IMG/VR virus record: IMGVR_UViG_3300030104_006563
Coordinates: 1 to 50,321 of that record
From: a virus
Lineage: Duplodnaviria; Caudoviricetes
Strand: one strand, 5' to 3'
DNA length: 50,321 nt
Shown here: positions 1,705 through 26,156 of the stretch, in pieces
Layout of the letters: each line of letters starts with the position of its first letter
How positions within the stretch are numbered: the first letter of the stretch is position 1
Notes under the pieces: generated by a model
The model's database searches: none
The model's input: the letters and a program-made list of their open reading frames with translations, nothing else
What the model was told of the DNA's origin: nothing
Program-made: the position numbers and the translations under genes

Positions 1705-4700
1705 ATGAATAAAAACCTGATTGAAGTCCTTCATGGGAATTTGTCCTCTGATGGGTATCAGCTACCTGACATTGAAGAATTTAAAATTAACTTGCAAGAT
1801 GAGAATCTTAGACAATCTTTTTACAATAATTTAACCTCTGATGGTTACGATTTTGGTAGCTACGAAGATTTTAGTAACACAGTCGCACCCTCCTCACAAC
1901 CCACTAAACCCCTCCTACCATCTTCTGGGCAAGGGAATTTAGGTAGCTCTAATTCAAGCGAGGGGACTTTAAAATCCCCTCCTAACTTGTGGGAAGGTGT
2001 TAAAGAGTTTGGTAAAACAATTGGGTTTGGAATAGAAAGAGAGTCAGAAGACCCTTATAATTTTGAAACAGCCTACGAATATTATAATGCATTGCCAGAC
2101 TTTGTTAAAGAAGAACTTAAAGAGACAAGGTATGGTGCAGATACTTTAGGTGCTGGAGCTGGTACTGAAAGAGGGATGTCTGTAAGTTTTGGGGACAATG
2201 CTATAAGCTTTGCAAGTGCATTTGATCTACTTGGAGAAAAAGAACAGCCTGTACTTTTAGCTAATATAAATACATATATAAACGATAATACTCCTGTTGA
2301 TGTTAATAATCTAGATGACATTCTAGATGCATCTTATAACAAGGTTAAAAACTTGAGAAGCTCACAAGTAGCAATAGACCTCTTGGAAAAAAATAAAGCT
2401 TACCATGAAGAGCTAATGGATGGTAACATAAATAGATATGCTGTAAAGTCTCCAGATGGTAGCATGATTACAGATAAAGACATTGTTAAAAAGATGTTTA
2501 AGCAAGAGCTTACCGATGATGGCTTAAGTCCTTCTAGATGGGAAGAGTTTGAAGAAAAGGGTTTTAGAAAGTACGACCTGTCAACAGGTAAAACAATTAC
2601 ACCAGAAAAGTCAAATCCTATAAAAGCTGTATTCAAAGGTATTAGTAATTGGTACAATGCAGACGAGATTATTACAGAAAAAAAATTAACACTACAAAAT
2701 GACATTGCTGAATATAAAAGAATGCTTGATGCTGGTGAGCCTGTTAGCGATGCTATAGTTCAGGGTCTTGTCAATAGAGAAAAGGAACTTAGCGAAAAAG
2801 ATAATGCTGTAGATGTAAATGATGATATTAGAGATGATCTGTACAATAAGGGTGCTATAATAGAAGAAAATGGACAGGAATATGCCTTTTACAACAAAAA
2901 TACAGGAACTTGGTTCTATGATAACCTTGAAGAATTAAACAACCCTAAAGTCCCATTTTCAAAGGAATATAAAAGACCTCATTATATTCAAAAAATTAAC
3001 TTAACTGATAATCATATCGCAGAAGAAGATAGATTGTCTGCTGGTGAATTTTATACCAAAACACTTCCATCAAAAGAAGGTGCAAAGCTGATACCATTTG
3101 CTGGTCAAGGGTTTGAGCTTAGTGATGCTTATAAATTATATGATGTATCCATGAAGCTAAAGAATGATCAGGATATTGATGAAGAGGACTTGGTATGGGC
3201 TAAAGAATATGTAGATAAGTTAAATAGAGATAATAGTTTTGGATATGATTTCTGGAAAGGGGTAGCATCTTCAGGGCAGTTTATGGCAGAGCTATATTTT
3301 ACTGCTGGAGCATTTACTGCAACTAAAGAAGTTACAGAAGCTGGTTTAAAACAAGCTTTTGCTAAATGGCTTAAAGAGTCAGCAGAAGATCAAATTAATG
3401 TCAGATTGGCTAAACTTGGTGGAAAAACTTTTGCCTCATCATTAGGATTACTATCACAGACAACTGTAATGGGTGCTGGAAGATCAGTTTCAAAGACTCT
3501 TGGAAGACAGACTCCAGATGCAATAATTCAGGGCGATAGCGAAGAATATGAGATTGTTGTAGATGCAGATAGTGAAATAGAACCTTTATTTACATCTATA
3601 TGGAAAGGGTATGGTGAGCAATTAACTGAAAATCTTAGTGAAAGAGCTGGGACTAAGTTGATGCAGACATTAAAACTGCCTGTATCATTTGCTACTAAAA
3701 AGGGTCGTGCACAATCTGGATTAAAATTAAAAGAATACTTTGGCTTATTAACTAGCAAGGAAAGAGAAAAACTATCTAGAAAAGCATTAAAGAATGCTGT
3801 GCTTAAAAGCAATCCTGAACTAGGTGAAACTACAATAGAGAGTGCAACTAAGAAGTTTTTTAAGCAAAGTCAGGTTGGAACATTCTCTGAAGAATTATTA
3901 GAAGAGCAGTATGGGAAATTTATAAAAGACATCACAGGCATAGAGGAGTTTGTAGCACCTACTCCTGATGATGTTTTGCTGGAACTTTCTACCTTAGCAT
4001 TTCCACAGGCACTTAGAAAAAGTATAACTGAAGGTGGAAAAGGGTATAGGAAAGCAAAGGCTAAAAGTGATCTTATAAAAGATTTAGAACTAGACCTTGT
4101 TGATGATGCAGAGCTTATAGAGTCTATCACCATAGAAGATATTGAGCAAGGTGATCCAGCACAAGTTCAGCTTGTTCAGAATAAAAGCACAGGCAAGTGG
4201 ATCGTCTGGGTTAATGACTACAATGGAAGGCTTTTAGAAGATATTGACTTTGATACTGAAAATGATGCGAGAAAATCTTTTCAATATGCTGTAGATCAAA
4301 TATCTGAAAGTGCATTTGAACAGCAAAAGTTTAAAGAGCCTACTGAACCAAAAGCAGATAATATTGAAATAGCTATTGAAGAGCCAGATGAAGATGATTC
4401 ACCTGAGATTGAATCTGATATAGATTTTGACAAGCTAGAGGAAGAGCTTGATAATTCAGGGCTATGGGAATTAGAAGAAGAATTAACTAAAAAGTATAAA
4501 ATAGATGGCGATCTTTTTAATCAAAATACTATTTTTGAAGCAGATACTTGGGATGTTGAAAGATTTGAAGTAATAAGGGAAAATTATGACAAGCTTGATA
4601 ACAAAGACAAAGCAAGGCTTGACAAAGCATTAACTAAAGCTTCACAGGTTGAGTTAAAAGCATTTGAATCCTTTAAGAAAAATGATGAATCGCTTAAAGA

Positions 4701-7700
4701 TGTAAACTATGAAGATGCTCCAGAAATAGATGATTCTGTTGATAGTCTTGAAAACACAAGAGAATTAATTGGTGATGATGCTGAGGAAGATGCACAGCTT
4801 GTAAGAGATCAGAATATAACCAATGCAAATGCTTATAGGTTGGCTATCATAAAAGCTAATAATGGAAGTGATCCATTTGAAAGTCCTTCAGAGCATATTA
4901 AAATATTCAATGCTCTTGTTCTAGATGGTGTTACAGAAAAAGTAAAAGAAGATGAAGACCATGTTAAATTAGCAAAAATACTTTCAGATAAGGTTAATGC
5001 TCTTTATAGTATGGATGGAAATCTTCCTAATTATACTAATAACGATATAGAAGTTACCTTATCAGCTGACCTTAATACAGGAAATGTTGCTGGAGAACAA
5101 CAGCAAGGAGATGTAATGCTTGATTTTATTGGGAGCATGAAATCTGAAGGTAGAGGTAAGGGGAATGCATCTAAAGAGCTGGATAGAATTTTAGCTGAAG
5201 CAGACAAATTAGATATGTCCATGACTCTACTTGTCGATTCTGATGAAGCTACTAGAAATATATCTAAAACTGACGAAAGTGGATTTGGAAAAGGGCTCTC
5301 TGATGATGAGCTTATAACATGGTATAAGAAAAGAGGATTTCTTTTTGATCGTGGATCAAAATATGGTTACAGACCAAAAAAATCTAATAAAAAAGTTTTT
5401 GAAAAACAGTTTAATGACCATCAAAAAAACACCTCTATTACAATCCCACTTAAAGATATTGATCAAAATGATATAGAATTTTTATCTGATCCAAGTGTTT
5501 TAGACCCAAGCTTGTTAAAAGATGGGCAGATATACGAAGCTGGAAACAATAAGCTGTATTTATTTAAAGATGGATATGTAAAATTAATTACAAACCTGAA
5601 ACATGAAGTCAATATTGGAGATACTCCAGATGTTATTTCTGATGATAAAGGTAATTCTGTAAATTGGATATACCATAAAGATTCAGACAATAAAGTTATA
5701 CTAAAAGAAGGCAGTAAGGATATTTTTTACTCCATATCTCCTACAGGTGTCAAGATAGGAGGTAGCCTATTTACTCCAACTCAAAAGAAAAGATTAAATA
5801 AATTTATAGAGGAGAATCCAGAAAATCTTAAAGAGGATGGAATTTCAGATGGTAAGATGTTTTGGAAGCTTACTTTTGATGACAACACATTCTCTACAAT
5901 ACCCACCATAAGATTTAATGTTGAACGAAATAAAAAAGGAACTCCTGTTCTTACTCCTATAGAGCAATCAATTACTCCTACAGGTTTTGGATTAGTAAAT
6001 CAGGCAGATGGTACTAAGGTTGCACTTAAAGAGATTATGGATAGCCTTAAGGAGAAAGCAGATAAAAAGAAAGAGAGAGCTGAAAAGCTTGAAGCTTCCA
6101 AGCAAGAGTTGTTAGATAGATTTATAACTCCTAAAGTGAAACAGTATATTAAAGAAAATATAATGGTAACTCCTGAAGAAGCAAAAGAGGCTATTGAAGC
6201 TTGGAAAAAGAAACCTTCACCTAAAATGGGCTTGGGTGATAACGATGTAGAGATGGTAAGTCTTTTTCTTGCTCAAAATGATATCTCAGATAGCAAGTTT
6301 GACGAAGTAATAGAAAATGGCTTAGATAGTGTATATAAGCCAGAAGTTGCTGTAGAGGTTGAAAAGGTTGAGGGACAGCAGTTTGAATTAGGCACAGAAG
6401 TGTTTGGTGTTGCAAAATCAACTAAAAGCAATAAATCAGGCAAAGCTATTATTGATGGATACAATGAGGAACAGGATAAGTATTCATTCAAAGATCAGTA
6501 TTCAGGTAAGCCTATTAAGAAAAATGGAAATGTATTATGGCTCAAGGGAGATATAGTTGCAGAATCTGTTAAAGGCTTTGCTCAAAAAGAAGCTTTAAAA
6601 AAGTATAATGATAATATAAATACATTGCCAAAGGCAGTTCGGACTGATGCTAGGAAATCTGCTACAGAATTTAATGAGCTATTGCTTGAGAATGACAAGC
6701 TGGTTCTTGGCGATAACTATGATGATGTTGTATTTAAGGCTGGGAGTGATCAGTCAACATATTTGCGATATGATCTTTATTCACAGATAGCAAAGAACTT
6801 AAATTTACCTGATGATGTAGATTTAAATAATCCAGCAGAAAGATATAAAGCTCTTCCAAAACTAAAAGAGTGGATAAAGAATCCAACAGAAGTTAAAGTA
6901 GAGGATGATATTGCTTGGATGATGGATGAGCTTAATGTGGATGAAAGTGAATTAGATGATACATCAAAGTCAAGTCCTGTAATTGATAAAAAATTAAATC
7001 AAACAATTGAAGAGGTAGAGGATGAAATTGACCAAGACATTAAAGAAGAAAGTGATCAATTATCTAAAGGACAAGAAAAAGTCTCTAGCAAACAAAAGAA
7101 AGATGATAGGGATAGTCAAAAAGATGATGAAGGAAGATTAAAACAGCAGAAACCTAATAAGAAACCTCAGTTCCAGAGGGAGTTATTAAAAGATAATATA
7201 ACCATCCCCTCTAAAGGCAAGGATGGATTTGGAAGAGATATCCCTGATTGGAGAGGTGCAGAAGTATACCATTCTACCGATCTTGAAGGTTACGAGGATA
7301 TTACAAAAAATGGCTACAAGCTAGTCAGCGAAGGGTATTATGGTATGGCTGTATCATTTACCCCAAACCTACAATACTCAAAGCAATTTGGTGATAGAGT
7401 TACAGTTGGAAAACTTTCCAATGATATAAAAATATTAAACTTAAACGATCCAGCAGATTGGGAAACTTTTCAATCAATAACAGGAAGGAAAAGTGCTCAA
7501 GACTATCCTCAGCTTGTTTTGGATGCTGGTTATGATGGAGTGTATGATGTTGGTGCTGGTGACCTCTTTATCTATAACCCAAAGGTTGTAACTGCTAGGA
7601 AGACTCCACAAAAACAATACACAGTTCAAGGCAATCTTGTAGTGTTGCATAATTTTAGTTCTAGTAGGATTGAAGATGTTGAAATGCTTGGCGGACTACC

Positions 7701-10700
7701 TGTACCAAGTATTGCTATTACAGATAAAGAAATTCCTTTTAATAGTTTTGGGGATGTTACTTTGGTTGGGGACATGGATTTGATTAATCCAGAATCACCT
7801 TTAAACGAAGTATATGACTCTGATATATATTCTAAAACTGTTCCACTTAAACTATACGATGTTGATGAAAATGCTCTAAGCGATAGATTGCAAAAAATGA
7901 GAACAGCCTTTGAAACAGTAGATAGAAGGGTTAGCTCTCTTGATCCTTTAGGTGGAGCTGATCTATATAGAGTTCAAGGAGGTCTAGAGTTTTTCTTACA
8001 AGAAGCAAAATACAATAGAGGATTGCAATATCAATTCTTATTAGATCAAGGGATCAATATAAGGTTATTTAAAAGGAATGCTAGATTAATTAATCAATAT
8101 GCTGAAGCAACACCTTTAAGAAATTTTTTCCAGAAGTATCCAAACCTAACACAAAGTAATATAGAAATTGGATCAGAGGTTCATAGAGAGCTTACAGATG
8201 CAATAAAAAATTCTATAACTACATATTATACTAATAAAAATATCCAGAAAATACTTTTACAAGGGTTTAATGACAGGCTGGACAGTAAAGGGTTTTATGC
8301 AATTGGTAGTTTGGGACACTTTTTTACTGATAGTAAAAATGTAGGCAAGAAGGTTGTAGATACTGAAAGAGCTGAGAAATCTATTGAAAAGGCTTTAAAG
8401 AAAGTTGGCAACGACAAGTTCTATGGATGGGTCGAATCGACCTTTAGTCCATATTTCAGCAACCCTCATTTCAAAGATGGTAAGAGGAAAGTTGAATGGG
8501 ACATGGACAACATAGTTAACTACATGATGAAAGGGGGTACAACCTCTAGGCAAGAAGGTATGACCTACAGCTTTGGTCGAGCTAAATCTGATGCATCAAA
8601 GCGATTAAAAAGTCTTGATGAAATACGACAAGCAACTAAAAATCTAACCACAGCAAAGGGTATAAAGGATGAAAGGGAGTCTTTTAATGAACTGTTTAGT
8701 CCTGTATTTGATAGGGTAAATCCATATTATAAATGGGATAGCACTTGGGAGTCTATCGACAATTTAAATAGAGCTCTTGGTCAGTATAATAAGGGTAAAA
8801 GAAGAGGTGTAGATGCAATGAGGTCTGTGTTGAAAAGCAATGATTTTATTGATGTTCCCTCTGGTCTAATTGAAGATATAATTCCTCTTGCAGATATGAT
8901 GAGAAGATCGAAGATTCAGTATCTTGAGGCAAAACCACAAAGAGCTGTAAACCTGTCTGAGTTTAGATATGCGATTGTGCCCAAGAAAACATCAAGAAAG
9001 AAAGTTGATATACTTAGGAAAAATGGTGTTGTTGTAAAATATTACGATCCTAAAAAAGAGAATGATAGATCAAGGGTTCTCCAAAAATTAAAAAAAGTTC
9101 ATTTCCAAAAGAATAGTTATGTTGAAGATGTTACCTCCATTGCTGATAATGATTGGAACGAGAGTGCTGAGAATGTATTGACGAAGGCTGTAGGTGGTGC
9201 TAAAGTTGTTTATCTCTCAAATGAAGAGATGAATGAAGAAGTTAGGAAAAGAGAAGTTGATAGTCAAGATGATTTAGAATTGTTTCATGGTAGTCCTCAC
9301 AGATTTGATAAGTTTACATTGAACAAGATCGGAACAGGTGCTAATGAAAATGTAATGGGATGGGGATTGTATTTTACAAGTAGTGAAAGTCTTGCTAGGC
9401 ATTATGCTACCCATTTAACCAATGTGCTAGGTGGTGAAAGAAATCTATACAAGGTTACATTATATAAAGATAAAATAGCACCAGCTAAATATATTGCTCT
9501 AGGTAAAGAAGTCTTCTTAAGCAATCTTCCTAAAAATAAGCAAGATGATGATGGTAATGCATTGCCTGTTAAGAAATTTAAGTCTAAAGAAAGTGCTATA
9601 AAATGGGCAGAGAAAAACAATGAAGGTGAATACAATTGGTTGGATTCAGATAAAGCAGTAAAGAAGTTTCAATTAAAAAGACTCCAGAAGCATTGGAATA
9701 ACATAAAAGATAGCTACGATGAAATGGGTTCTGTCTTTAATGTAAATCAAATTGAGACATTAGATAAAACTTTATCTCAAACTAGCTGGAATACTCAATG
9801 GGGTTCTCGTAGCAAGTCTGGTGAAGCCTTGTACACAGAGATACAATCTGTTTTAGGATCAAGAGGAGCATCTAAGTTTTTACTTAATGCTGGTATTGAT
9901 GGAATAACTTTTATGCAATCTCAAACTTTAGACAATGCACCTAAAGGAAGGGTTTATGTAGTATTTGATGATACTGCTATCAAGATAGAAGAGAGAATAC
10001 AATTCCAAAAGACTACACCTGAAAAATTAAGGGTTGACCAAGTTGCTAAAAAGGTGGCTGGTAGAAAGGTTAGGGAGGCTGGAAGAGTTAGGGCTGGAAC
10101 AGTTCAAGGGCTATCTAATATTATGGATGTTCTTGCAGATGAGAATTTTGACTTTGAAGGCTCTTTTGAATGGTACAGGGATAAAGTATTTGGTGCTGTA
10201 GATATCGCCTCTATAGAACTACCAGAATTGCGAAACAATAGCTCTAAGCAAACTATATTTAAAGTATTAATGGGTATCACAAGTTTAGGAACAAAGGTTT
10301 CTCCTAATTATGACTACTCTGTATCTGCAATGAGATACTATTTAGATAATGGAAAGCTTGAAATTGCATTAAATGTTAATGGAAATAAAGTAATAAAGGC
10401 TAAAAATAAGTTTGACAAAGCTGTGACAGTTGGTGCTTTAAAGTCTAGTGCAGTTGGAACAAATGCATTAAAGCTTCAAAAGTTAATTGATGAGCTTGGA
10501 GAGGATGGAGCTGTTGATTGGCTAATGTCTACCCATACAGGTAAAGAGATAAATGAAAAGTTTGGTAAAAACTTTGGACATCTTAGAAAAGGGTATACTT
10601 ACTATGGAATGATGGCATTTGGTCAAAAGATAGGAAGATACATCTTAAATCTTGATGGAGTGCATGATGAAGCTGTATATGATCTTTGGTGGTCTAGGAC

Positions 10701-13700
10701 TTGGAACAGGTGGATGGGGACACCATTTAAAACAAACAAGTCTGGCAAGGTTGAAAAAGATAGTAAAGGTAGACCTGTAACTCAGGAGACTCCTAGAACT
10801 GTTGTAGAAGTTGATGTGATGGATGAGGTTGTAAACAACCTAGTTAAAGAGTTGTCTGATATGACAGGATTTAAGTGGAGTCCAGATCAGGTACAGGCAG
10901 TTCTTTGGTATTACGAAAAAGAGCTGTATATTAGGGAAGGCTCTGCACAGGAAGAAGGCACAAATTATAAAGACCAAGCAATAAGAAGAGCTAAGGAAAG
11001 GAATTATTATGAGCAGTTTACCACATCCAAAGATACTAAAGTCGCTGGAGGAACTAAAGGAGTCAGGGGTTCTGTCGAAGGAGAACAGACCCAAGATAAC
11101 AAAGGCGATCAAAAATCGGATAAAGGAACTAGAGAAGGAACAGGGCAAGAAGATTCTCAAGTAACACTATCTGGAGTACAGTTCCAAAGGCAACTATCCA
11201 AGCCTCAACAATGGGTAGATTATTTCCAAGAAACAACAGTTATCGATGACAAGGGAAACCCTCTTGTAGTTTACCATATTACAGACAATGTGTTTGATGA
11301 GTTTATTTATAAAGAAGGTGGATTCCATTTTGGTACTGAGGATATCCATGAATCTTTAAGGGCACTTAAGGGAAGTGAGCTCAATATTAAGATGGAAGGG
11401 TATTTAGATATTAGAAATCCTATTCGTTTAGATGATATGGGAAATTTTGATGCTCTAGATATAGCCAATAAACTTTTAGAGAAAAACATTCTTACTGAAG
11501 ATCAATGGTCTGATTTAGAAGGGAGATTAGTAGAGCCTTATGAATCTGATAACCCTGATTATCAAACTGAGGCGAGTAATATCTTAAATGATTTTCTATT
11601 AGATTTAGGCTATGATGGATTTGTTTATAAAAATTCTGGGGATACTTTTACCAATCAGCCAAAAATAATAGTTGATGCTAAAAACATGGTTGCATATGTA
11701 AGCACATTAAATACCCTATCTGTTATGGAAATAACTCCTAAAAAAGATGGCTCAAAAAATATGTTTGCATTCTACGATGGTTCAAATGTGTATGAGCCTG
11801 TAAAAGATTTAAGAAAAGATTTTACCAAAGAAGATTTAAAGAATATTAAAGGTTTACTTGATAATGGTTATGAGCCATTTAATCCTTATACAGGTAGCAA
11901 TCTTCCTGTTAGATATGATGATTTTGTAAATCCTAAAGCTTTAAAAGATTCTTGGATTGCATTTAAGTCTAGTCAGTTTAAGCTAACCTCAAATCAACAT
12001 CCTACTACCGATCCTAAAGTTCAATATCAAGGACAGGAAGAAGGCTCTGTGCTTGGATTCTTCGATCAGGAATCTGGAACAATATATATAAATAAAGACA
12101 AGGCTACGAAGGACACTATATTCCATGAGTTTACTCATCCATATATTAATTGGATAAGAGAGAACGATAGTGAAAGGTATAATGAGGGGATTGAACTTAT
12201 CAAGCAATCTCCCTATCTAGACATGGTGAAAATGTCCCAGCCTAGTCTTTCCCCAGCAGAGATGTTGGATGAAGCCTTAGTTCAAGCGATAGGTGAACAG
12301 GGTGCTCGTATTAAAAATGCTAAAGATAAAAACAAATTCTTAGCATGGATTAAAAAATTATTCATGCAGTTTAAAAGAGCTATTAAGAAGTTTACAGGAG
12401 AAAAGTTAACCTTAGATGAATTTACAGATAGTGTGGCTCAAAGCTTACAGGCTGGTAAAGAATTATTTGAATTAGAATCTAAAGCTGGAGATGTGCAATA
12501 TGAATCAGGGGATGCTCCTGTTTTTTACAGTTCAACTAGAACAGTTATAGCAGATAAGTTTCCAGAAAAAATGAAAAAGGTTAGTGTTAAAAATTGGTTA
12601 AAAAGAAATCAAATAAAGCAAGAGGAAATTGATTGGCTTGATCTAGATACAATATTTGATAATGATAAAAATCAATATATATCAAAAGGTGAATTGTATA
12701 GCTGGGTTACTGTAAATGAAATTAATGTTGAAACTGTTATGAAGGGTTATAACCCTAACATGGTGGAAGCTGTAGAATTATTTATGGAAAATCATGGGCA
12801 TACACTTGAGAAAATAAAGAAGTTGCAAAGAGATGATGTGAACTTTGAGCCTGTAGAAATTGGTGCAAATGGAAACCCTATATCTTATATAGATAAAAAA
12901 ACAGGTGCAGAACTTAGTGGTAGTTTCTCTAGGCAAAATTTAGAATGGGGTTGGTCAGCTTTTCGGAATCTAGTAGGGCAGAAGGTTATGTTTGATCATT
13001 TGCCTGTAAGAGAAAATATAGACAATCTTATTGAGTATCTTGAAAGTAAGAAGTTTGAGAATTTTGTGATTGGCTCAAGTGACGATCTTGATAGTGGTGC
13101 TGAATTTCTGAAAGATGATGGGGATATAATATTTCATGGTTATAATTATTATGGTGATGGAGAAAATCTAAATATAAGTCTGTCTGATTTAAAGAAAACA
13201 ATTTCTCAATATGATGAGCTAGTAGAATCTAGGAGTAAAAATCCACTATCCGTAAGAGATTCTTATTTCAATCAAATCAAGGCAGAATATAAAGAATTAA
13301 TGAGCTTCGTGTATAATGTTAAATATACTAATGTAAGAGTGAATTGGATGAGTAGAACTTGGTCTGCTGTAGTGCCTTATGTGGATAATCTGGAAGATGG
13401 TGTAATTAAGAAAACCCAAATAAGAAGTAAAATTACAAGCTTAAAGAGGGCAGAGGATGTTGTTAATGATTATTATAGAATAGGCACAAAGCTTGATAAG
13501 AGTAGTGTAGGGTCACCAAGTTCTGATTTTAGTTTACTGCTAGGGAGATATGAACCCTTTTATGATTTTAAAGATGATGCATTTATAGATGATGTTACAA
13601 ATATGGAAATAGACCTTAATTATGATATTCATAATAGGCATAGTAATCAAAAACCAAGGCATGAGGGGTATGTTCAGGGTGGTGCTAGTGATGACTATAC

Positions 13701-16700
13701 TGAGGTTCTTCTTCGTATTAGGAAAGGTGAAGAAATCTCAGGGGGAACTGATTTTGGTTATCAGGATAATGCTGGTCATTGGGAGGAAGACAATGTTATT
13801 GCTCATGCAAGGATGAATACTAGGTATGATAGCAATGGTAATAAAATTCTTTTTATTGAAGAAATTCAATCCGATTGGCATCAAGAAGGTGCTTCAGAGG
13901 GATATATAAAAAGGATACCTGAAGATATTAAAAATAAAATTGATGCATTGAATTTAAAGTACGATGCAATAAAGAGAAAGCGAAATATGTTTAAGCTTTC
14001 AGAATCAGCAGAAAAGCAAAGTGGAGAAGATCGTAAAAAATGGATAGAACTTGATGATAGAATGGAAAAGGTGTTACATGATATAGTAATACTAGAAAAA
14101 CCTTATAAGGGAGCAGTATTAGATGCACCATTTAAAAGCACAGCATGGATACGATTGATATTAAAAAGACTCATAAGACATGGTGCAGAGAATGGATATG
14201 ATGGAATATCTTGGACAACAGGTGCACAGCAGATCGACAGGTGGCAAACAAGCATGAGGCAAAATATAGATGCTTTTCATTGGAATAAGTATGAGGAAAA
14301 TGGAATAGCCTATGTGAAATTAAATGCTATTAAAAATAGATCAAGTGTTGGGAATTTCAATATACCTATAAATGGTAAAGCAGAAATTAATGGTCGACAG
14401 GTTTCTTTAGAAAGATTAGTAGGCAAAGAAACTGCAAAAGAAATTGTTGAAAGCGATACAAAGTTTGGTGTAAAAGAATCAAGCAATCTTTCTATTGGTG
14501 GTGGTATCCATAAATTGATTTATGATAAAGCTATGATAGATATTGCAAACAAGCTTGGAAAAAGATTTGGAGTAAAAGTTGCTACAAACAAAATAATTAC
14601 AGACAGTTTTAGTGGAGTGCTGTGGAGTAAAAATATTAAAGATATAGGGTACGGATTAGGTCAGAGCCCAATTGTTGTAGTTGCTTCCCCAACAGAAACG
14701 ATGTACAAGAATGATTTAAAATATTTCGATGCAAGAAATTACAACAGGATATTTTTAACTAAAAAAGGTGCTGAAAAACATATAAAAGATAATAAAAATT
14801 CAGACATAAGATATGAAATTGTTGAAGCTGGAACAGAGCATCCATATTTAGAATTAAATGAAGATTTAAAGTCTTTTGCTTTAAAGGGACAACCACTATT
14901 CCAAAAAGAAATAGATCAGCCTGTATTCCCAGATACTAAAGTTGTAGACTCTGATGGAAAGCCTTTAGTTGTATATCATGGTACTGCTTATGATTTTAAT
15001 AATCTCTCTGGTGGTAATTGGTTTGCTGAAGATGTCAGTTTTGCTAATGATTGGATGGAAAAAGATTCTGATATGGAAGGTGCTAATCCTAGAATAATAA
15101 GTGCTAATATAAATATTACAAATCCTGTTATTATACCTGAAGACCTTACAGAAATCACAAGTGTTGATGAATGGATATCTAGACTTTCTAACTTGATGAA
15201 TGTTTCTCAGGCTGATTTAGATGTTATGCCAGAAGCGATTAAAAGTGCTATAGAAGGTAGATTTTCTAGAGTTCCAAAAAAACTAACCAATTGGGAAGTT
15301 TTAGACTCTATTATATATGCTGATAATTTCATTGATTGGTTTAAAGGTTTAGGTTATGATGGTTTTGATACTTATGAAACAGGTCAAAGAACTTGGTATG
15401 CTTTTGAGTCAGATCAAATTAAAGAGCTTAAGCCTAGACAAACAAAGCCTAGACCTCAATTTAGAAAAACCTTAGTAGAATCAAAAGAGGGATTTGTAAA
15501 CAAGATGGCTAAACTTTATCAAGCTCTCTCTACATCACTTGGGAAACCAGCATCTAAAAAACAATTTATCGACTCTTTAAATGAAATGGAATACAATGAA
15601 GACTCTGTTAAAAGAGCTCAATTGTTTTATTCTCAAATTAAAAATAAATCGATTATTGAAGAAGGGGAAACTACTCCAATTGAAAAGGATGTAATAAAAC
15701 TTGAAGATAAAATTACTGATTTAGATGAGATAATTGTATCATCTGAAGACAGGAAGGTAATTAAAGAATCAAGGAAGAAGATTGTTAAGATAAGGCAAAG
15801 GATAAAGTCGCTTGTTGCTGGTGAAAGGATTGGCTCTAGGGCAACAAAAATAGAACTCCGTAAACTTAAAATGCTAATTACGAGATATGCTAAGGAAAAC
15901 CTACCAAAGTTCGGAGCAACAAGGGGACAGATATCACCTATCTTAACATCTATATCTAATGCTAAAAATGAAAAGCAATTAGAAGCAGTATTTAATAGAA
16001 TAGATAATATTAGAGAAACTGTATACACTAAGATGTATCTATCCAAGATCAAGAAAGCCTTAAAAAGTCAGAAACTTAAAAAACAAGGTGGGAAGATTAA
16101 AGGAAAGTTAACTGCTGATACTCAGGAGTATATTGAAAAGATTAAAAATATAGTTACGATGAGTCAATTGGAAGCAGATGAGCAGTTGTTCTTCTTTGCT
16201 GAACTTGAAGAGTCTGGAAAGATGGATTCTAAAAGACAGGAAGACAAGTTTCTGATCGAGGTATTTGGTGGACTTAAATCCAAGAGCCTTGAAGAGATAG
16301 AAGAAGCCTATGCAAATTTATTATCTATAATTGATTCTGGTAAAACTTTAAGACTTGCTATGGAAAGCCTTAGAAAGACTAAAAATAAACTGATGGCTGA
16401 CAGGGTTGTTTCTGTTATTCTCCCAAAGGGCAAGGAGGTGCATGGTAAGTTATCTAGAAGGACATTAGGAAGAGATACTTCAAAAACAACATCTCAGGTA
16501 TGGGATATAGTTAGAGGGGTAAATGCAAAGATTCAATCTTTTGAAACCATGCTAGACATTTTCTCTTATAATGATAGAGGGTCTATACCTTTTGATAGTT
16601 ATTTAAATAGAAAGTTTGGGAAATCTCTGAGGAATGCAGATTTAAAAGAGCAAGAAGGTGTAAGGCTTAAAGAGGTTAAGCTTATGGCTAAAGCTCAAGA

Positions 16701-18879
16701 GATATTTGGTTTATCTGGTAGGGCATTAAAGAAAAAGCTGGATAAAAATGAGATGCCTGAACTTGTAGATGTGTTTGTATTAAAAGAAGCACAGCCTGAC
16801 AGATATATGGAAATAGTAATGGAGAAAGGTGAAACCATTCAATTAAAGCTTTCTCAAAATGAATTAGCTCAATATTGGATGTGGCTACAGGATGAAACAT
16901 TACATGGTACATTTAAAAACATGGGCTTTACTCCAGATACTTTAAGCCAGATAGAAGAAGCTCTTGACCCACAGGTGCTTGAATTTGCACAATACCTTTT
17001 AGATGATTTTTATCCTAGTTATTATCCTGATATAAATAAAGTATATAGAAAAATGTTTTATGTCAATATGAATAATAATCCTAAATACTCTCATATTGTA
17101 AGAGAGCATTATGGAAGCGAGGAGGATACAGGTGAAACACTTAATACTTCTGGAGCAATCCCTACAGCTTTCTCTGGACATCTTATTGCTAGAGTGGATA
17201 ATAAAAAGCCATTACAACCCACAGACATGGTCAGGAATGTATTTCAACATATATTCCAGATGGAGCATTTTATATCTCATGCTGAAGCAATAAGAGAAAT
17301 TAGAGCTGTATTCAACAGTTCTGATGTTCAGGCTACATTAGAAGAATATTATGGAATACCTATGATGCAAGTTTTTAACAATTTGTTAGATGATGTTGCT
17401 AGAGGTGGTCTGGATAGGAATAAGATAGTAAAGGAAGTTGATTTCTTTATAAGGAATTTTGTAAGAGCAAAAATTGGATTAAAGCCTGTTATATTTTTAA
17501 AGCAGTTAGCATCTATACCAGCTAGTATGTCTGAGATACCTGTGCATTCATTTATATATGGTACAGGCAAGTTCTTTTTAAATCCGAAAAAAGCACTAGG
17601 CATATTAAGAGAATCTAGGCTTGTTAAGAGCAGAGGTAAGGGTTTTAGTAGAGATGTAAGAGAGCTTTTAAGAAAGTCTAGCTCTAAAAGATTGGCTGAC
17701 AGTAAAGGGTTTAATGAATTTTCAATGAGCCTAGCAAGGCTTGGAGATATATCTGCTATTTTAGTTGGTGGTTATGCTGTATACGACTACCATTATAATA
17801 AGCAAATAGAGTCTGGAGCAACTGAAAAAGAAGCAAAAGATTTTGCTATGGATAAATTTGAACAATCTGCTGAGAGATGGCAACAATCAGGTCAGACTAA
17901 AAACTTATCTGAATTGCAAAGAAGTGGATCGCTTATGAAATTGTTTACAATGTTCCTAAACTCTCCTATTCAATATTTCCAACAAGGTCAAACAGGTCTT
18001 AGAAATCTAATTGCTAAAAGAGGATCGAAAGCACAAAACTTAAAGAGAACTTTTATGGCATACTTTGTACTAAATGCATCCTTTCAGTTTATCTCTGCTG
18101 GATTTAAAGCAGACGATGAAGACTTTTGGAAGAGACTTTCTTTAGCATGGTCTAAAGGTATCCCTGTTTTAGGTGGTGTTGTAGAGTATTTAGCATTCAG
18201 GAAGTTTGGATATTCAATGACTCCACTTGAATCTGTAGTTCCAGATTTAGGTAGGGCTATTGATTCTGGAGAAGATATGGTAAGTGCTCTTGGTGGGAAA
18301 GAAGAATTTTCTGCTAGTGAGTATTACAAGATGGCTGATAATATCCTTGATGTTGTTGGTAGCTTCACAGGTGTTCCATACGAAGGTGTTAGTGGAACTA
18401 TAGAAGGAGTTTATGATGCTTTTGCTGGTAACACAGCCCATCCAATAAAACGATCTTTAGGATTTAGTGACTATGCATTGCATGGTACATCTAACAAATC
18501 ACAAATCTTATTTAAGGAGAGTTTAGATAAGGACTTAACTTTAGAAGAATACTTGAATAAATTGGAACTTAAATTAGAGAAAGATGGAAAGTCTGAAAAG
18601 TCTATCAAGCTAAACAAGTCTAGAATGTCAAAGAGATATAAGGCTTTAAAAGAGGCTGGTGTAGATGATAAGTGGGCTATAGGATTTATTGAGCTTAATA
18701 ATAATGATGATAAAGCAAAATACCTGAAGGGTATGCTGAATGAATTGCCATTCACAGAATTTAAAAAGTATTATGATATCTTTAATCTAAAATCAAAATT
18801 GATATCAAATGACTTGAAAAAATTACTTAGGAGTAATGGAGTGATGAGAGCCATACAGGATAGTAAAGTAAATCCTTAA
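1705..18879 (+). CDS. Giant (5,724 aa) polyvalent internal virion/ejection protein: GNAT, four ADP-ribosyltransferase-like domains, HhH-like domain, zincin metallopeptidase, other unnamed domains, helical C-terminal region
   Basis: GNAT: EGRGKGNAS..WYKKRGF. ART-like: YHST/FHGS/YHIT/YHGT each followed by G(Y/I)DG. Zincin: TIFHEFTH..DEAL. HhH-like: KIGRYILNL..DLWWSR..QAVLW. Confidence 0.85.
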   Translation: MNKNLIEVLHGNLSSDGYQLPDIEEFKINLQDENLRQSFYNNLTSDGYDFGSYEDFSNTVAPSSQPTKPLLPSSGQGNLGSSNSSEGTLKSPPNLWEGVKEFGKTIGFGIERESEDPYNFETAYEYYNALPDFVKEELKETRYGADTLGAGAGTERGMSVSFGDNAISFASAFDLLGEKEQPVLLANINTYINDNTPVDVNNLDDILDASYNKVKNLRSSQVAIDLLEKNKAYHEELMDGNINRYAVKSPDGSMITDKDIVKKMFKQELTDDGLSPSRWEEFEEKGFRKYDLSTGKTITPEKSNPIKAVFKGISNWYNADEIITEKKLTLQNDIAEYKRMLDAGEPVSDAIVQGLVNREKELSEKDNAVDVNDDIRDDLYNKGAIIEENGQEYAFYNKNTGTWFYDNLEELNNPKVPFSKEYKRPHYIQKINLTDNHIAEEDRLSAGEFYTKTLPSKEGAKLIPFAGQGFELSDAYKLYDVSMKLKNDQDIDEEDLVWAKEYVDKLNRDNSFGYDFWKGVASSGQFMAELYFTAGAFTATKEVTEAGLKQAFAKWLKESAEDQINVRLAKLGGKTFASSLGLLSQTTVMGAGRSVSKTLGRQTPDAIIQGDSEEYEIVVDADSEIEPLFTSIWKGYGEQLTENLSERAGTKLMQTLKLPVSFATKKGRAQSGLKLKEYFGLLTSKEREKLSRKALKNAVLKSNPELGETTIESATKKFFKQSQVGTFSEELLEEQYGKFIKDITGIEEFVAPTPDDVLLELSTLAFPQALRKSITEGGKGYRKAKAKSDLIKDLELDLVDDAELIESITIEDIEQGDPAQVQLVQNKSTGKWIVWVNDYNGRLLEDIDFDTENDARKSFQYAVDQISESAFEQQKFKEPTEPKADNIEIAIEEPDEDDSPEIESDIDFDKLEEELDNSGLWELEEELTKKYKIDGDLFNQNTIFEADTWDVERFEVIRENYDKLDNKDKARLDKALTKASQVELKAFESFKKNDESLKDVNYEDAPEIDDSVDSLENTRELIGDDAEEDAQLVRDQNITNANAYRLAIIKANNGSDPFESPSEHIKIFNALVLDGVTEKVKEDEDHVKLAKILSDKVNALYSMDGNLPNYTNNDIEVTLSADLNTGNVAGEQQQGDVMLDFIGSMKSEGRGKGNASKELDRILAEADKLDMSMTLLVDSDEATRNISKTDESGFGKGLSDDELITWYKKRGFLFDRGSKYGYRPKKSNKKVFEKQFNDHQKNTSITIPLKDIDQNDIEFLSDPSVLDPSLLKDGQIYEAGNNKLYLFKDGYVKLITNLKHEVNIGDTPDVISDDKGNSVNWIYHKDSDNKVILKEGSKDIFYSISPTGVKIGGSLFTPTQKKRLNKFIEENPENLKEDGISDGKMFWKLTFDDNTFSTIPTIRFNVERNKKGTPVLTPIEQSITPTGFGLVNQADGTKVALKEIMDSLKEKADKKKERAEKLEASKQELLDRFITPKVKQYIKENIMVTPEEAKEAIEAWKKKPSPKMGLGDNDVEMVSLFLAQNDISDSKFDEVIENGLDSVYKPEVAVEVEKVEGQQFELGTEVFGVAKSTKSNKSGKAIIDGYNEEQDKYSFKDQYSGKPIKKNGNVLWLKGDIVAESVKGFAQKEALKKYNDNINTLPKAVRTDARKSATEFNELLLENDKLVLGDNYDDVVFKAGSDQSTYLRYDLYSQIAKNLNLPDDVDLNNPAERYKALPKLKEWIKNPTEVKVEDDIAWMMDELNVDESELDDTSKSSPVIDKKLNQTIEEVEDEIDQDIKEESDQLSKGQEKVSSKQKKDDRDSQKDDEGRLKQQKPNKKPQFQRELLKDNITIPSKGKDGFGRDIPDWRGAEVYHSTDLEGYEDITKNGYKLVSEGYYGMAVSFTPNLQYSKQFGDRVTVGKLSNDIKILNLNDPADWETFQSITGRKSAQDYPQLVLDAGYDGVYDVGAGDLFIYNPKVVTARKTPQKQYTVQGNLVVLHNFSSSRIEDVEMLGGLPVPSIAITDKEIPFNSFGDVTLVGDMDLINPESPLNEVYDSDIYSKTVPLKLYDVDENALSDRLQKMRTAFETVDRRVSSLDPLGGADLYRVQGGLEFFLQEAKYNRGLQYQFLLDQGINIRLFKRNARLINQYAEATPLRNFFQKYPNLTQSNIEIGSEVHRELTDAIKNSITTYYTNKNIQKILLQGFNDRLDSKGFYAIGSLGHFFTDSKNVGKKVVDTERAEKSIEKALKKVGNDKFYGWVESTFSPYFSNPHFKDGKRKVEWDMDNIVNYMMKGGTTSRQEGMTYSFGRAKSDASKRLKSLDEIRQATKNLTTAKGIKDERESFNELFSPVFDRVNPYYKWDSTWESIDNLNRALGQYNKGKRRGVDAMRSVLKSNDFIDVPSGLIEDIIPLADMMRRSKIQYLEAKPQRAVNLSEFRYAIVPKKTSRKKVDILRKNGVVVKYYDPKKENDRSRVLQKLKKVHFQKNSYVEDVTSIADNDWNESAENVLTKAVGGAKVVYLSNEEMNEEVRKREVDSQDDLELFHGSPHRFDKFTLNKIGTGANENVMGWGLYFTSSESLARHYATHLTNVLGGERNLYKVTLYKDKIAPAKYIALGKEVFLSNLPKNKQDDDGNALPVKKFKSKESAIKWAEKNNEGEYNWLDSDKAVKKFQLKRLQKHWNNIKDSYDEMGSVFNVNQIETLDKTLSQTSWNTQWGSRSKSGEALYTEIQSVLGSRGASKFLLNAGIDGITFMQSQTLDNAPKGRVYVVFDDTAIKIEERIQFQKTTPEKLRVDQVAKKVAGRKVREAGRVRAGTVQGLSNIMDVLADENFDFEGSFEWYRDKVFGAVDIASIELPELRNNSSKQTIFKVLMGITSLGTKVSPNYDYSVSAMRYYLDNGKLEIALNVNGNKVIKAKNKFDKAVTVGALKSSAVGTNALKLQKLIDELGEDGAVDWLMSTHTGKEINEKFGKNFGHLRKGYTYYGMMAFGQKIGRYILNLDGVHDEAVYDLWWSRTWNRWMGTPFKTNKSGKVEKDSKGRPVTQETPRTVVEVDVMDEVVNNLVKELSDMTGFKWSPDQVQAVLWYYEKELYIREGSAQEEGTNYKDQAIRRAKERNYYEQFTTSKDTKVAGGTKGVRGSVEGEQTQDNKGDQKSDKGTREGTGQEDSQVTLSGVQFQRQLSKPQQWVDYFQETTVIDDKGNPLVVYHITDNVFDEFIYKEGGFHFGTEDIHESLRALKGSELNIKMEGYLDIRNPIRLDDMGNFDALDIANKLLEKNILTEDQWSDLEGRLVEPYESDNPDYQTEASNILNDFLLDLGYDGFVYKNSGDTFTNQPKIIVDAKNMVAYVSTLNTLSVMEITPKKDGSKNMFAFYDGSNVYEPVKDLRKDFTKEDLKNIKGLLDNGYEPFNPYTGSNLPVRYDDFVNPKALKDSWIAFKSSQFKLTSNQHPTTDPKVQYQGQEEGSVLGFFDQESGTIYINKDKATKDTIFHEFTHPYINWIRENDSERYNEGIELIKQSPYLDMVKMSQPSLSPAEMLDEALVQAIGEQGARIKNAKDKNKFLAWIKKLFMQFKRAIKKFTGEKLTLDEFTDSVAQSLQAGKELFELESKAGDVQYESGDAPVFYSSTRTVIADKFPEKMKKVSVKNWLKRNQIKQEEIDWLDLDTIFDNDKNQYISKGELYSWVTVNEINVETVMKGYNPNMVEAVELFMENHGHTLEKIKKLQRDDVNFEPVEIGANGNPISYIDKKTGAELSGSFSRQNLEWGWSAFRNLVGQKVMFDHLPVRENIDNLIEYLESKKFENFVIGSSDDLDSGAEFLKDDGDIIFHGYNYYGDGENLNISLSDLKKTISQYDELVESRSKNPLSVRDSYFNQIKAEYKELMSFVYNVKYTNVRVNWMSRTWSAVVPYVDNLEDGVIKKTQIRSKITSLKRAEDVVNDYYRIGTKLDKSSVGSPSSDFSLLLGRYEPFYDFKDDAFIDDVTNMEIDLNYDIHNRHSNQKPRHEGYVQGGASDDYTEVLLRIRKGEEISGGTDFGYQDNAGHWEEDNVIAHARMNTRYDSNGNKILFIEEIQSDWHQEGASEGYIKRIPEDIKNKIDALNLKYDAIKRKRNMFKLSESAEKQSGEDRKKWIELDDRMEKVLHDIVILEKPYKGAVLDAPFKSTAWIRLILKRLIRHGAENGYDGISWTTGAQQIDRWQTSMRQNIDAFHWNKYEENGIAYVKLNAIKNRSSVGNFNIPINGKAEINGRQVSLERLVGKETAKEIVESDTKFGVKESSNLSIGGGIHKLIYDKAMIDIANKLGKRFGVKVATNKIITDSFSGVLWSKNIKDIGYGLGQSPIVVVASPTETMYKNDLKYFDARNYNRIFLTKKGAEKHIKDNKNSDIRYEIVEAGTEHPYLELNEDLKSFALKGQPLFQKEIDQPVFPDTKVVDSDGKPLVVYHGTAYDFNNLSGGNWFAEDVSFANDWMEKDSDMEGANPRIISANINITNPVIIPEDLTEITSVDEWISRLSNLMNVSQADLDVMPEAIKSAIEGRFSRVPKKLTNWEVLDSIIYADNFIDWFKGLGYDGFDTYETGQRTWYAFESDQIKELKPRQTKPRPQFRKTLVESKEGFVNKMAKLYQALSTSLGKPASKKQFIDSLNEMEYNEDSVKRAQLFYSQIKNKSIIEEGETTPIEKDVIKLEDKITDLDEIIVSSEDRKVIKESRKKIVKIRQRIKSLVAGERIGSRATKIELRKLKMLITRYAKENLPKFGATRGQISPILTSISNAKNEKQLEAVFNRIDNIRETVYTKMYLSKIKKALKSQKLKKQGGKIKGKLTADTQEYIEKIKNIVTMSQLEADEQLFFFAELEESGKMDSKRQEDKFLIEVFGGLKSKSLEEIEEAYANLLSIIDSGKTLRLAMESLRKTKNKLMADRVVSVILPKGKEVHGKLSRRTLGRDTSKTTSQVWDIVRGVNAKIQSFETMLDIFSYNDRGSIPFDSYLNRKFGKSLRNADLKEQEGVRLKEVKLMAKAQEIFGLSGRALKKKLDKNEMPELVDVFVLKEAQPDRYMEIVMEKGETIQLKLSQNELAQYWMWLQDETLHGTFKNMGFTPDTLSQIEEALDPQVLEFAQYLLDDFYPSYYPDINKVYRKMFYVNMNNNPKYSHIVREHYGSEEDTGETLNTSGAIPTAFSGHLIARVDNKKPLQPTDMVRNVFQHIFQMEHFISHAEAIREIRAVFNSSDVQATLEEYYGIPMMQVFNNLLDDVARGGLDRNKIVKEVDFFIRNFVRAKIGLKPVIFLKQLASIPASMSEIPVHSFIYGTGKFFLNPKKALGILRESRLVKSRGKGFSRDVRELLRKSSSKRLADSKGFNEFSMSLARLGDISAILVGGYAVYDYHYNKQIESGATEKEAKDFAMDKFEQSAERWQQSGQTKNLSELQRSGSLMKLFTMFLNSPIQYFQQGQTGLRNLIAKRGSKAQNLKRTFMAYFVLNASFQFISAGFKADDEDFWKRLSLAWSKGIPVLGGVVEYLAFRKFGYSMTPLESVVPDLGRAIDSGEDMVSALGGKEEFSASEYYKMADNILDVVGSFTGVPYEGVSGTIEGVYDAFAGNTAHPIKRSLGFSDYALHGTSNKSQILFKESLDKDLTLEEYLNKLELKLEKDGKSEKSIKLNKSRMSKRYKALKEAGVDDKWAIGFIELNNNDDKAKYLKGMLNELPFTEFKKYYDIFNLKSKLISNDLKKLLRSNGVMRAIQDSKVNP

Positions 18880-25520: not shown

Positions 25521-25711
25521 TGGAAAAGTTTTTAACTCCAAAACAAATATGTGATTCGTTAAATGTGAGCCCTGAGCTTGTATATAATGAAATCAAGTTA
25601 GGTCATCTACCAGCGATAAAAATTGGTAAACAATATAGAGTATCGCAAAAGAATTTCAGAGAATATCTGGATAGAATGAAAGTGCAATCTATAGGGAGAA
25701 GGTGTGCTTAA
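25520..25711 (+). CDS. xis: Excisionase-like MerR-type HTH protein
   Basis: FLTPKQICDSLNVS..VY..IK.G.LPAIKIGKQYRV. Confidence 0.85.
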   Translation: MEKFLTPKQICDSLNVSPELVYNEIKLGHLPAIKIGKQYRVSQKNFREYLDRMKVQSIGRRCA

Positions 25712-26156
25712 GATAGTAACAGACACATACCAGCTTCATAAGAAGGTTCACCCCATTCCATTAAAAGAGAGCTTTGCAACAGCACAAAACATGTTGCTCT
25801 GGCTCTTACAAAATCAAAGTAATAGATCAGCAAGGACTATTGGTTTGGCTAGTAATCAGCTTGGACTTAAGGGAAGAGTTATTTCAGTTAGAAGGGGTCA
25901 TAAATGGCATATGATGATCAATCCAAGTATTTACAGCACATCAGAAGAAACAGCAGAGGGTATGGAAGGATGTCTATCTGTTGATGGTCTATATAAGATT
26001 GAGAGATCAACCTCTGTAACTGTTGAGTATTACGACATAAAGCAGAAGGCTTTGATGAGAACAAGACTAGATGAGCTAGATGCTAGAGTCGTACAGCATG
26101 AGATAGATCATCTTGATGGCAAATTAATAAGTGATAATTATAGAGGGGTAAAATAG
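25704..26156 (+). CDS. def: Peptide deformylase
   Basis: GLASNQLG, EGCLS and QHEIDHLDG motifs. Confidence 0.95.
   Translation: MLKIVTDTYQLHKKVHPIPLKESFATAQNMLLWLLQNQSNRSARTIGLASNQLGLKGRVISVRRGHKWHMMINPSIYSTSEETAEGMEGCLSVDGLYKIERSTSVTVEYYDIKQKALMRTRLDELDARVVQHEIDHLDGKLISDNYRGVK

Follow-up and report, generated by a model that had tools for sequence, protein, structure and literature searches.

A recurrent junction peptide between the cassettes of a giant phage polyvalent protein and its possible reading by a putative built-in zincin

The IMG/VR record IMGVR_UViG_3300030104_006563 (Duplodnaviria; Caudoviricetes) is a whole virus genome rated 100% complete, and its 50,321 bases were analysed here as one stretch of DNA, called the window. 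A single open reading frame (ORF) on the plus strand, at 1705..18879, takes up 34% of the record and encodes a protein of 5,724 amino acids (aa), which is by its domain content a new member of the phage-type polyvalent proteins. We found that a short peptide recurs at the joints between the modules of this giant protein. The same peptide is kept at the same joints in relatives, so it is probably a "cut here" signal, and its third residue covaries with one cluster of HExxH zincin modules. The best explanation appears to be that the built-in zincin reads the junction peptide as a signal for processing, which we regard as a serious but still tentative reading.

In the proposed arrangement, the gene would encode a virion-delivered polyvalent protein in which a central array is enclosed by an N-terminal region and by a C-terminal region that relatives also have. 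The array would consist of eight cassettes, namely four ART-like, one PBECR5 RNase-like, one of no known family (M4), the putative zincin and a large EEIQSDWHQ cassette. A junction peptide x-[FY]-Q/x-[KR]/x, a local dialect of the form hydrophobic-[FY]-[SQ]-[KR], would stand in front of each. This peptide most likely marks where the chain would be cut into separate enzymes, and the HExxH zincin of the same chain would be its most likely reader.

The junction peptide at the module joints

A preliminary description of this DNA had named nine tetrapeptides as domain junctions, and all nine were found in frame in the ORF at 1705..18879. The regions, modules and junctions (J1 to J9) of the protein are as follows.

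1705..7167, plus strand: N-terminal region (aa 1-1821), without a family match and without FQ[KR]
7168..7179, plus strand: junction J1, QFQR at aa 1822, with the DNA CAGTTCCAGAGG; preceded by a Lys/Pro/Gln-rich linker
7180..7614, plus strand: ART1-like module, without a Pfam match; the 125 aa past J1 cluster with ART modules by BLAST
7615..7626, plus strand: junction J2, QYTV at aa 1971, a loose variant
7627..9099, plus strand: PBECR5 RNase-like domain (aa 1975-2185, E 3.9e-22) and a conserved C-terminal part
9100..9111, plus strand: junction J3, HFQK at aa 2466; aligned relatives read LFQK, LFSK, LFSR, MFSR and LFQR
9274..9765, plus strand: ART2, ART-PolyVal at aa 2524-2687 with 36.4 bits, above the cut-off
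10000..10011, plus strand: junction J4, QFQK at aa 2766, at the end of the ART2 tail; relatives read RFRI, LFQG, MFEP and QYRI
10012..11178, plus strand: module M4, called "HhH-like" in the preliminary description, without a Pfam match; homologous to aa 745-937 of the relative P0125
11179..11190, plus strand: junction J5, QFQR at aa 3159, preceded by a Gly/Gln/Asp/Ser-rich linker; 31 alignment ends fall around it
11245..11643, plus strand: ART3, ART-PolyVal near aa 3181-3313 with 25-29 bits (28.7 against a cut-off of 31.2), below the cut-off
12022..12033, plus strand: junction J6, QYQG at aa 3440, its Tyr 33 residues upstream of the first His of HExxH
12022..12495, plus strand: putative zincin module (aa 3440-3597), with HEFTH at 12124-12138 (aa 3474)
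12496..12507, plus strand: junction J7, QYES at aa 3598, corresponding to TYRL in the relatives P0125 and P0130
12508..14895, plus strand: module M7, with a conserved start (aa 3604-3681), the EEIQSDWHQ core and a GQP end before J8
13768-14604, plus strand: EEIQSDWHQ core of M7 (aa 4022-4300), without a Pfam family
14896..14907, plus strand: junction J8, LFQK at aa 4398, aligned with GQP-LFSR, LFQK, LFRR and MFSR in dozens of relatives
14947..15429, plus strand: ART4, ART-PolyVal at about aa 4415-4575 with 43-44.5 bits, above the cut-off
15457..15468, plus strand: junction J9, QFRK at aa 4585, with a TTT codon; corresponding to KFQK in the relative P0126 and to ISFR[ML] in the IMG/VR loci L001-L003
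15469..18876, plus strand: C-terminal region, common to P0125, P0126 and gp74 of Tenacibaculum phage Gundel_1

The preliminary description had also placed one recognisable module in each interval. This was borne out in Pfam by PBECR5, ART2 and ART4; ART3 stayed below the cut-off, and three modules (ART1, "HhH-like" and EEIQSDWHQ) had no match, ART1 being grouped with the ARTs by BLAST. No homologue of the N-terminal region (aa 1-1821) was found among 119 giant relatives, and the homology of the C-terminal region begins at J9. The J7 equivalents in the window protein, P0125 and P0130 are all followed by a module start of the form x-P-x-F-Y-S.

A count of the motif against background, proposed as a check in that description, showed enrichment. 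FQ[KR] occurs six times in the giant protein against 1.37 in shuffled sequences (at least six in 5 of 2,000 shuffles) and [QHL]FQ[KR] five times against 0.19 expected (reached in none of 2,000 shuffles), both patterns having been fixed only after the sites were seen. All six FQ[KR] lie within the central array at aa 1801-4600, where 0.68 would be expected; none is present in the N-terminal 1,800 aa (0.34 expected) or in the C-terminal 1,124 aa (0.37 expected). In the 22 other ORFs (7,405 aa) the pattern was seen once, as GFQK, against an expectation of 1.23. The third residue of the nine junctions is Q at six and S at none.

When the giant protein was compared by BLAST with the 119 relatives, 378 alignments with 756 ends were obtained, and the ends were counted in nine intervals of 36 aa, one at each junction. 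These contained 209 of the 756 ends against a mean of 83.6 for random sets of intervals, of which 371 in 20,000 held at least 209. Seven of the nine contain five or more ends; the interval at J2 holds 38, which are mainly starts of the next module (positions -13 to +7). Further peaks of alignment ends were noticed at aa ~2061, 3316, 3688, 4020 and 4295, all five without the motif. The motif had been described as standing at nearly every domain boundary, and this wording is overstated because of these other peaks; what stands is that seven of the nine sites coincide with ends of homology.

The 12 residues before six of the nine junctions are at least 67% polar, charged, Pro or Gly, the mean of the array being 61%, and three junctions come after plainly linker-like sequence. 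In a structural model of aa 3990-4416, built from a 13-sequence alignment with a mean predicted local distance difference test (pLDDT) score of 71, the last helix stops at aa 4394, and the pLDDT is below 50 from Phe4399 of J8 onwards.

Alignment with relatives identifies the window motif as a local variant of a junction peptide found across the family, hydrophobic-[FY]-[SQ]-[KR], as in LFSR, LFQK and MFSR. Relatives aligned at J2 to J9 bear an equivalent peptide; J1 was reached by no relative's alignment. The EEIQSDWHQ module is followed in relatives by GQP-LFSR, LFQK, LFRR or MFSR, the PBECR5-linked module by LFSR, LFQK or MFSR, and the ART domains by a tail N-R-G-T-F-D-P-x-x-P-x-I-[LRM]-[FY]-[SQ]. 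A set of 110 non-redundant giant relatives contains [LM]F[SQ][RK] 93 times where 20.7 are expected; its reversal, with the same expectation of 20.7, occurs 32 times. An independent search of the full library supplied 132 more proteins, in which the motif was counted 54 times (15.6 expected) and three permuted controls 13, 16 and 17 times. The enrichment was therefore 3.5- to 4.5-fold in two sets of polyvalent proteins. The exact forms FQ[KR] and Q[FY]Q were rejected as family-wide motifs, with 107 against 102 and 53 against 68 expected, respectively, in the 119 relatives.

An all-against-all BLAST of 111 proteins gave 17.3 alignment ends per site at 0-9 residues past the start of the motif; bins close by held about 1-3 per site, and the reversed motif had 0.12. 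At least three alignment ends or starts lie nearby at 27 of 27 sites preceded by "QP", at 57 of 109 other sites and at 22% of random positions. The 84 sites thus supported are preceded by 14 clusters of upstream sequence and followed by 40 clusters of downstream sequence. Protein termini gave no signal (three N-terminal motifs and one C-terminal against 2.5 expected), and no stand-alone ART relatives of 118-378 aa were found. Some ART tails lack an aromatic junction residue, as in P0022, P0023 and P0046-P0053, with DITRRA[LM] four times in P0022 and IL[LH]xQA in the Pseudomonas aeruginosa proteins; these are further dialects that escape the [FY] pattern.

These counts bear on the possibility that a few FQ[KR] and some loose Q-[FY]-x-x sites were chosen afterwards and over-read. 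For it speak the four junctions of the window that are loose variants (QYTV, QYQG, QYES and QFRK), the loose pattern [QHL][FY][QRET][KRGSV], which occurs 11 times against 4.5 expected, the look-alikes QYQF2108 and FFQK2141 inside the PBECR5 domain (aa 1975-2185), and the near-background number of exact FQ[KR] in relatives. These loose variants and look-alikes are weak points of the processing reading as well. Chance is nevertheless hard to square with the [QHL]FQ[KR] count, with an equivalent motif at aligned positions in relatives and with two independent protein sets that are enriched for the ordered motif and not for its permutations, and we consider it the most improbable account of the junctions.

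The third junction residue and one cluster of zincins

The module at aa 3440-3597 is called a putative zincin here for its invariant H-E-x-x-H: in HEFTH at aa 3474, the H, E and H are unchanged across 12 sequences of 12-24% identity. In the predicted structure (mean pLDDT 54) HEFTH lies on a helix at positions 45-63, preceded by two strands, and both flanking motifs fall in low-confidence stretches of this poor model. Glu residues are present downstream (…EALVQAIGEQ…), and no downstream Glu column is invariant in the 12-sequence alignment. The best profile match in the Protein Data Bank, a "putative metalloprotease II", is weak (E 0.22); a sequence search of solved structures returned nothing, a protein atlas returned unnamed clusters only, and the other 11 aligned members have no Pfam family.

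Within single proteins of the family the third junction residue tends to be uniform. This residue (S or Q) was identical in 613 of 919 within-protein pairs of sites against a permutation mean of 484, and none of 5,000 permutations reached 613. No such uniformity was seen for F versus Y at the junctions. HExxH is itself common in these proteins, with 112 occurrences against 8.5 expected in 111 proteins, 84 of which contain it.

A possible link of this dialect to the HExxH modules was examined by clustering 213 HExxH segments from 245 proteins; the cluster that contains the window's zincin has 59 members, of which 48 form a main group, nine a window-like group and two a group of their own. In 41 of the 59, [FY][QS] lies 26-48 residues upstream of HExxH, where about 15% would be expected by chance; the site is mostly LFQ[GKPS], with a peak at 30-36 residues, and QYQG of the window lies at 33. 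The zincin clusters 1-5 have such an upstream site in 4/23, 0/18, 0/17, 1/10 and 0/10 members, respectively.

The following counts of ART tails and of the strict motif omit both the zincin-adjacent site and the window protein. The ratio of Q to S in ART tails was 13:0 for proteins whose zincin belongs to the main group and 2:0 for those of the window-like group; proteins lacking the cluster gave 7:40 (p = 1.5e-8). For the strict motif, it was 15:11 with the cluster and 44:122 without (p = 0.0025), the overall content of Q and S being equal in the two sets of proteins. This covariation is of interest because a pair of protease and site would predict it.

In a tree of 61 ART domains, from which the tails were excluded, the tail type needs 16 changes against a mean of 18.2 when shuffled, and therefore the Q tails do not form one ART clade. 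In this set, the tail has Q in 15 of 15 domains from proteins with the zincin cluster and S in 39 of 46 elsewhere. Resolution of this tree may be poor, and it is the only control here for the lineage of the host protein.

A link to the window-type zincin alone was tried and rejected, as four of the 111 proteins by jackhmmer and four more by database search were too few. In proteins with the window-type zincin the ratio of phi-[FY]Q to phi-[FY]S was 34:30 against 458:653 (p = 0.07), and in a five-protein subset picked after the fact it was 15:6 (p = 0.007).

Cassette exchange and the DNA of the junctions

An alignment of homologues, which had been suggested as a check, found modules swapped or absent exactly between motifs in two relatives. 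In the place where the window protein reads GQP-LFQK-[ART4]-QFRK, P0126 (1,925 aa) reads GQP-LFQS-[MuF_C domain]-KFQK, and the homology of the two proteins extends to the motifs on both sides, up to GQP-LFQ and again from P-x-F-x-K. P0125 (2,994 aa) is colinear with aa 4023-5587 of the window protein and has TFRA and SFRM where the latter has LFQK and QFRK. In its M4-like part a single TYRL links the module to the start of M7, and ART3 and the zincin, which the window protein places between J5 and J7, are absent. The loci L001-L003 were assigned to the same lineage as the window, P0125 and P0126.

Such exchanges could also have left the motif as a by-product of DNA microhomology used in cassette swapping, in which case the peptide itself would have no role. 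Apart from the exact cassette borders in P0126 and P0125, this view can point to the degenerate 12-mer CANTTCCARARG, whose four copies in the window (0.12 expected) all sit at junctions, and to the codon TTC for the junction Phe at 5/6 sites both in the window and in the AT-rich L001-L003. It is contradicted by conservation at the level of the peptide across relatives of 25-40% identity and by the range of base composition (GC from < 0.42 to > 0.55) of those relatives whose DNA was read. None of the 20 largest direct-repeat families (>= 14 nucleotides) lies at a junction, the flanking DNA has nothing in common beyond the 12-mer, and the junction TTC count in other phages is 19 of 28 against 15.7 expected. 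The 12-mer does no more than mirror the junction peptide. The suggestion of a scar or microhomology made in the preliminary description thus proved weak, the common DNA being a degenerate 12-mer and the peptide being conserved at about 30% identity, and we regard it as very improbable.

The use of TTC was looked at further. The count given in that description was reproduced: TTC encodes the junction Phe at five of six sites (7171, 9103, 10003, 11182 and 14899), with TTT in QFRK as the exception. The background share of TTC among Phe codons is 19-21% (48 of 256 in the giant gene, 54 of 262 in the remaining ORFs). The excess is partly an effect of context because TTC is commoner before codons that start with C (13/29 and 10/30; for other F-Q pairs 4/9 and 4/12). 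With the F-Q background of 8/21, TTC at all five junction FQ[KR] has a probability of about 0.008, on few sites. The 28 junction codons of other phages show no preference. In L001-L003 the TTC codons stand before AGA. Selection for accurate translation at conserved Phe was rejected, as conserved Phe have TTC at 9/48 against 15/73. The small trend in the window and in L001-L003 thus stays unexplained by context, conservation or a general trend.

Processing signal, its alternatives and known systems

The proposal that the motif is a cleavage site gained from this analysis in so far as the motif marks joints and its third residue covaries with a cluster of HExxH zincins; no cleavage was observed. 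Cleavage, the scissile bond, its timing (in the capsid or after ejection) and the catalytic activity of the zincin are what we infer from sequence. Several observations weigh against processing by the built-in zincin, and these concern the enzyme, the covariation and the spread of the motif. No cleavage product is known from any polyvalent protein in which this motif occurs, and the N4 virion RNA polymerase, ArdC and TraC1 are described in the consulted part of the 2017 survey as having such peptidase domains and yet being delivered uncut (PMC5512222). A Foldseek search with the zincin model gave no match, and Pfam gave DUF4932 alone, at 22.6-23 bits, below its cut-off of 28.7. Gundel_1 gp74 has a window-type zincin without the cassette array, so the zincin may serve another purpose. 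Motif density is 0.266 per 1,000 aa in proteins with HExxH and 0.321 in those without (p = 0.41). The window-like group of nine zincins is bridged to the main group by a single protein (P0202), and its own covariation is thin (ART tails 2:0, strict motif 7:8). The only controls for relatedness among the proteins were a redundancy filter on 6-mers and the ART tree. In 80 IMG/VR loci the enrichment of [LM]F[SQ][RK] was weaker (16 against 6.2, with controls of 8, 11 and 8); these loci came from an alignment-based scan with the module, a single-protein scan of IMG/VR having given nothing. Finally, in 12 IMG/VR loci a terminal EEIQSDWHQ module keeps GQPLF with no module after it, so part of the motif belongs to the EEIQSDWHQ domain.

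The last point leads to the view that the junction is a structural boundary element, its aromatic residue and neighbours acting as a C-terminal cap, a last strand or a folding insulator of a chain that stays uncut. The 12 terminal modules (L009, L017, L032, L042, L052, L064-L067, L069, L072 and L076) suit it. Many of these loci are closely related to one another; in them GQPLF is followed by A or S, then by A, V or G, and by a tail of 23-43 residues, and never by [SQ][RK]. The long conserved lead-in N-R-G-T-F-D-P-x-x-P-x-I before the motif in ART tails (147 matches to the regular expression) and the packaging of the N4 virion RNA polymerase in unprocessed form, as given in the part of the source consulted (PMC5512222), point the same way. 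Against this, the same tetrapeptide ends unrelated ART, PBECR5-linked and EEIQSDWHQ folds as well as low-complexity linkers, three sites of the window come after linker-like sequence, and the confidence of the model drops at the motif and not past it. Nor would a pure cap be expected to have one Q/S dialect across modules or to track a zincin cluster. We consider an uncut structural element unlikely, though it is the alternative that deserves most attention.

A cleavage signal could also be read by another protease, from the host or from the phage in a form that was not recognised. This would account for P0021, P0004, P0039, P0041 and P0068, which have 3-5 motif sites without HExxH, for a motif density that is independent of HExxH and for the zincin of Gundel_1 gp74 without an array. 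What speaks against it is that no further protease was recognised in the complete 50-kb record by family scans of its larger ORFs, that the Q/S dialect follows one zincin cluster, and that only one other HExxH was found in open frames of at least 80 aa. This is QHEIDHLDG at 26097, in an ORF of about 150 aa (25704-26156), a candidate peptide deformylase. A different reader is, in our judgement, distinctly improbable.

Reading by the built-in zincin is thus the explanation that we continue to prefer. Its wider form, a portable "cut here" grammar at every cassette joint with a third residue that co-evolves with the resident family of zincins, is more doubtful, if still conceivable; under such a grammar any cassette with its junction could be inserted into any chain and still be released. 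As a speculation, cutting immediately ahead of the aromatic residue would give products with Phe or Tyr at the N-terminus, a degradation signal in bacteria, and the injected enzymes would then be short-lived.

The position of the gene in the genome agrees with a virion protein. Family matches were found in the record for the following genes.

36016: terminase
41058: major head protein
42151: SU10-type adaptor

The phage is therefore likely to be short-tailed (podovirus-like) because these three are present. In the circular gene order, the giant gene comes after the tail genes, that is, among the late or virion genes. A megablast search with the head and tail region against cultured phages gave no match. 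The protein combines PBECR5 (E 3.9e-22), ART-PolyVal (above the cut-off at two sites, below it at a third) and an HExxH module; from its PBECR5 and ART-PolyVal domains it is therefore a polyvalent protein of the phage type in the sense of Iyer et al, 2017 (PMC5512222). A search limited to giant proteins returned 473 relatives at E <= 0.001, and among the 120 of these that were listed most have ART-PolyVal, PBECR5 or LPD families in varying sets. Gundel_1 gp74, a homologue, is annotated as "structural protein", and a 2,811-aa polyvalent protein, gp47, was found in phi24B virions by mass spectrometry according to the part of that report consulted (bioRxiv 10.64898/2026.04.10.717836). By analogy, the giant protein would be packaged in the virion and delivered with the DNA.

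Two further regions of the protein were compared with relatives. The C-terminal region (15457-18876) has ~21-22% identity over 400-730 residues with BPP-1 Bbp10 and with large proteins of Caulobacter phages, podovirus counterparts that are annotated as "lysis protein"; this distant similarity would fit an internal or ejection protein. The EEIQSDWHQ module has invariant His, Asn, Arg and E-x-Q-S-D-W residues. Pfam searches with 13 aligned members gave nothing besides ART-PolyVal, MuF_C, RadC and DUF3990, and nothing for the window segment; Foldseek found no match for its fold, and a wide structural search matched a helical hairpin only. This module is possibly an enzyme not characterised so far.

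Polyvalent proteins occur widely: for the EEIQSDWHQ module by itself, 9,648 relatives were counted at E <= 0.001 among 1.84 billion representatives. The phage studied here devotes one third of its genome to one such chain. The assumption since 2017 has been that these proteins are divided into individual enzymes by the peptidases they contain, and we know of no cut sites described in them before. A junction peptide with protease-linked dialects names exact residues and fragment ends, making the processing hypothesis directly testable. If the reading is true, the module borders of phage effectors could be read from sequence, which would aid the search for new anti-defence enzymes.

Three well-known systems offer parallels. 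In multi-effector toxins of the MARTX type, arrays of effectors are freed at short linker sites by a built-in cysteine protease. The giant protein resembles them in its swappable effector cassettes in one chain with short linker sites and an in-chain protease, here putative; unlike these secreted bacterial toxins, it is a phage protein with a putative zinc protease and a different site, and its cleavage is predicted. The internal proteins and Alt of phage T4 are trimmed by the prohead protease at a short consensus. They too are packaged and injected effectors, including an ART, with a short protease motif, packaging being inferred in our case; unlike in T4, no prohead protease was recognised in the record by the family scans of larger ORFs, and the motif stands between the cassettes of one chain instead of after an N-terminal targeting peptide. 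Viral polyproteins are cut by an embedded protease, such as picornavirus 3C at Gln-Gly. These share with the giant protein a short junction motif at domain borders and a candidate reader that is itself one of the domains; the differences are a DNA phage, a putative zincin in place of a chymotrypsin-like protease, and accessory effectors in place of replication proteins.

Among phage proteins, Gundel_1 gp74 (MT732474.1, 2,482 aa) has the window-type zincin (36% identity over aa 3460-3587) and shares the C-terminal region (aa 4685-5593, 22% identity), and differs from the window protein in having no effector array and no clear junction motif. It is encoded at 5035-12483 of L084, a cultured phage, with HEFGH at aa 1337, and is a possible experimental stand-in. 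Likened by its description, phi24B gp47 is also a podovirus polyvalent protein (LPD, MuF-C) that was proposed to be an ejection protein, and the consulted part of that report gives no processing (bioRxiv 10.64898/2026.04.10.717836). The closest precedent is the survey of Iyer, Burroughs, Anand, de Souza and Aravind (2017), where processing by a built-in peptidase was proposed for polyvalent proteins (PMC5512222). As far as the consulted part of that paper goes, the giant protein is like those proteins in joining ART-PolyVal, PBECR5 and HExxH modules in one polypeptide and in having its gene at the end of the virion gene module. A literature search, which did not extend to supplementary files such as the alignments of the 2017 paper, turned up no paper in which a junction or cleavage motif is described for polyvalent proteins. 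Thus, processing by zincins had already been proposed, and the family-wide form of the junction peptide, the Q/S dialect test and the ART-tree control appear to be new. Unlike the 2017 survey, which in the part consulted names no cleavage or junction motif (PMC5512222), the present analysis describes a junction tetrapeptide, its Q and S dialects and their link to one cluster of zincins.

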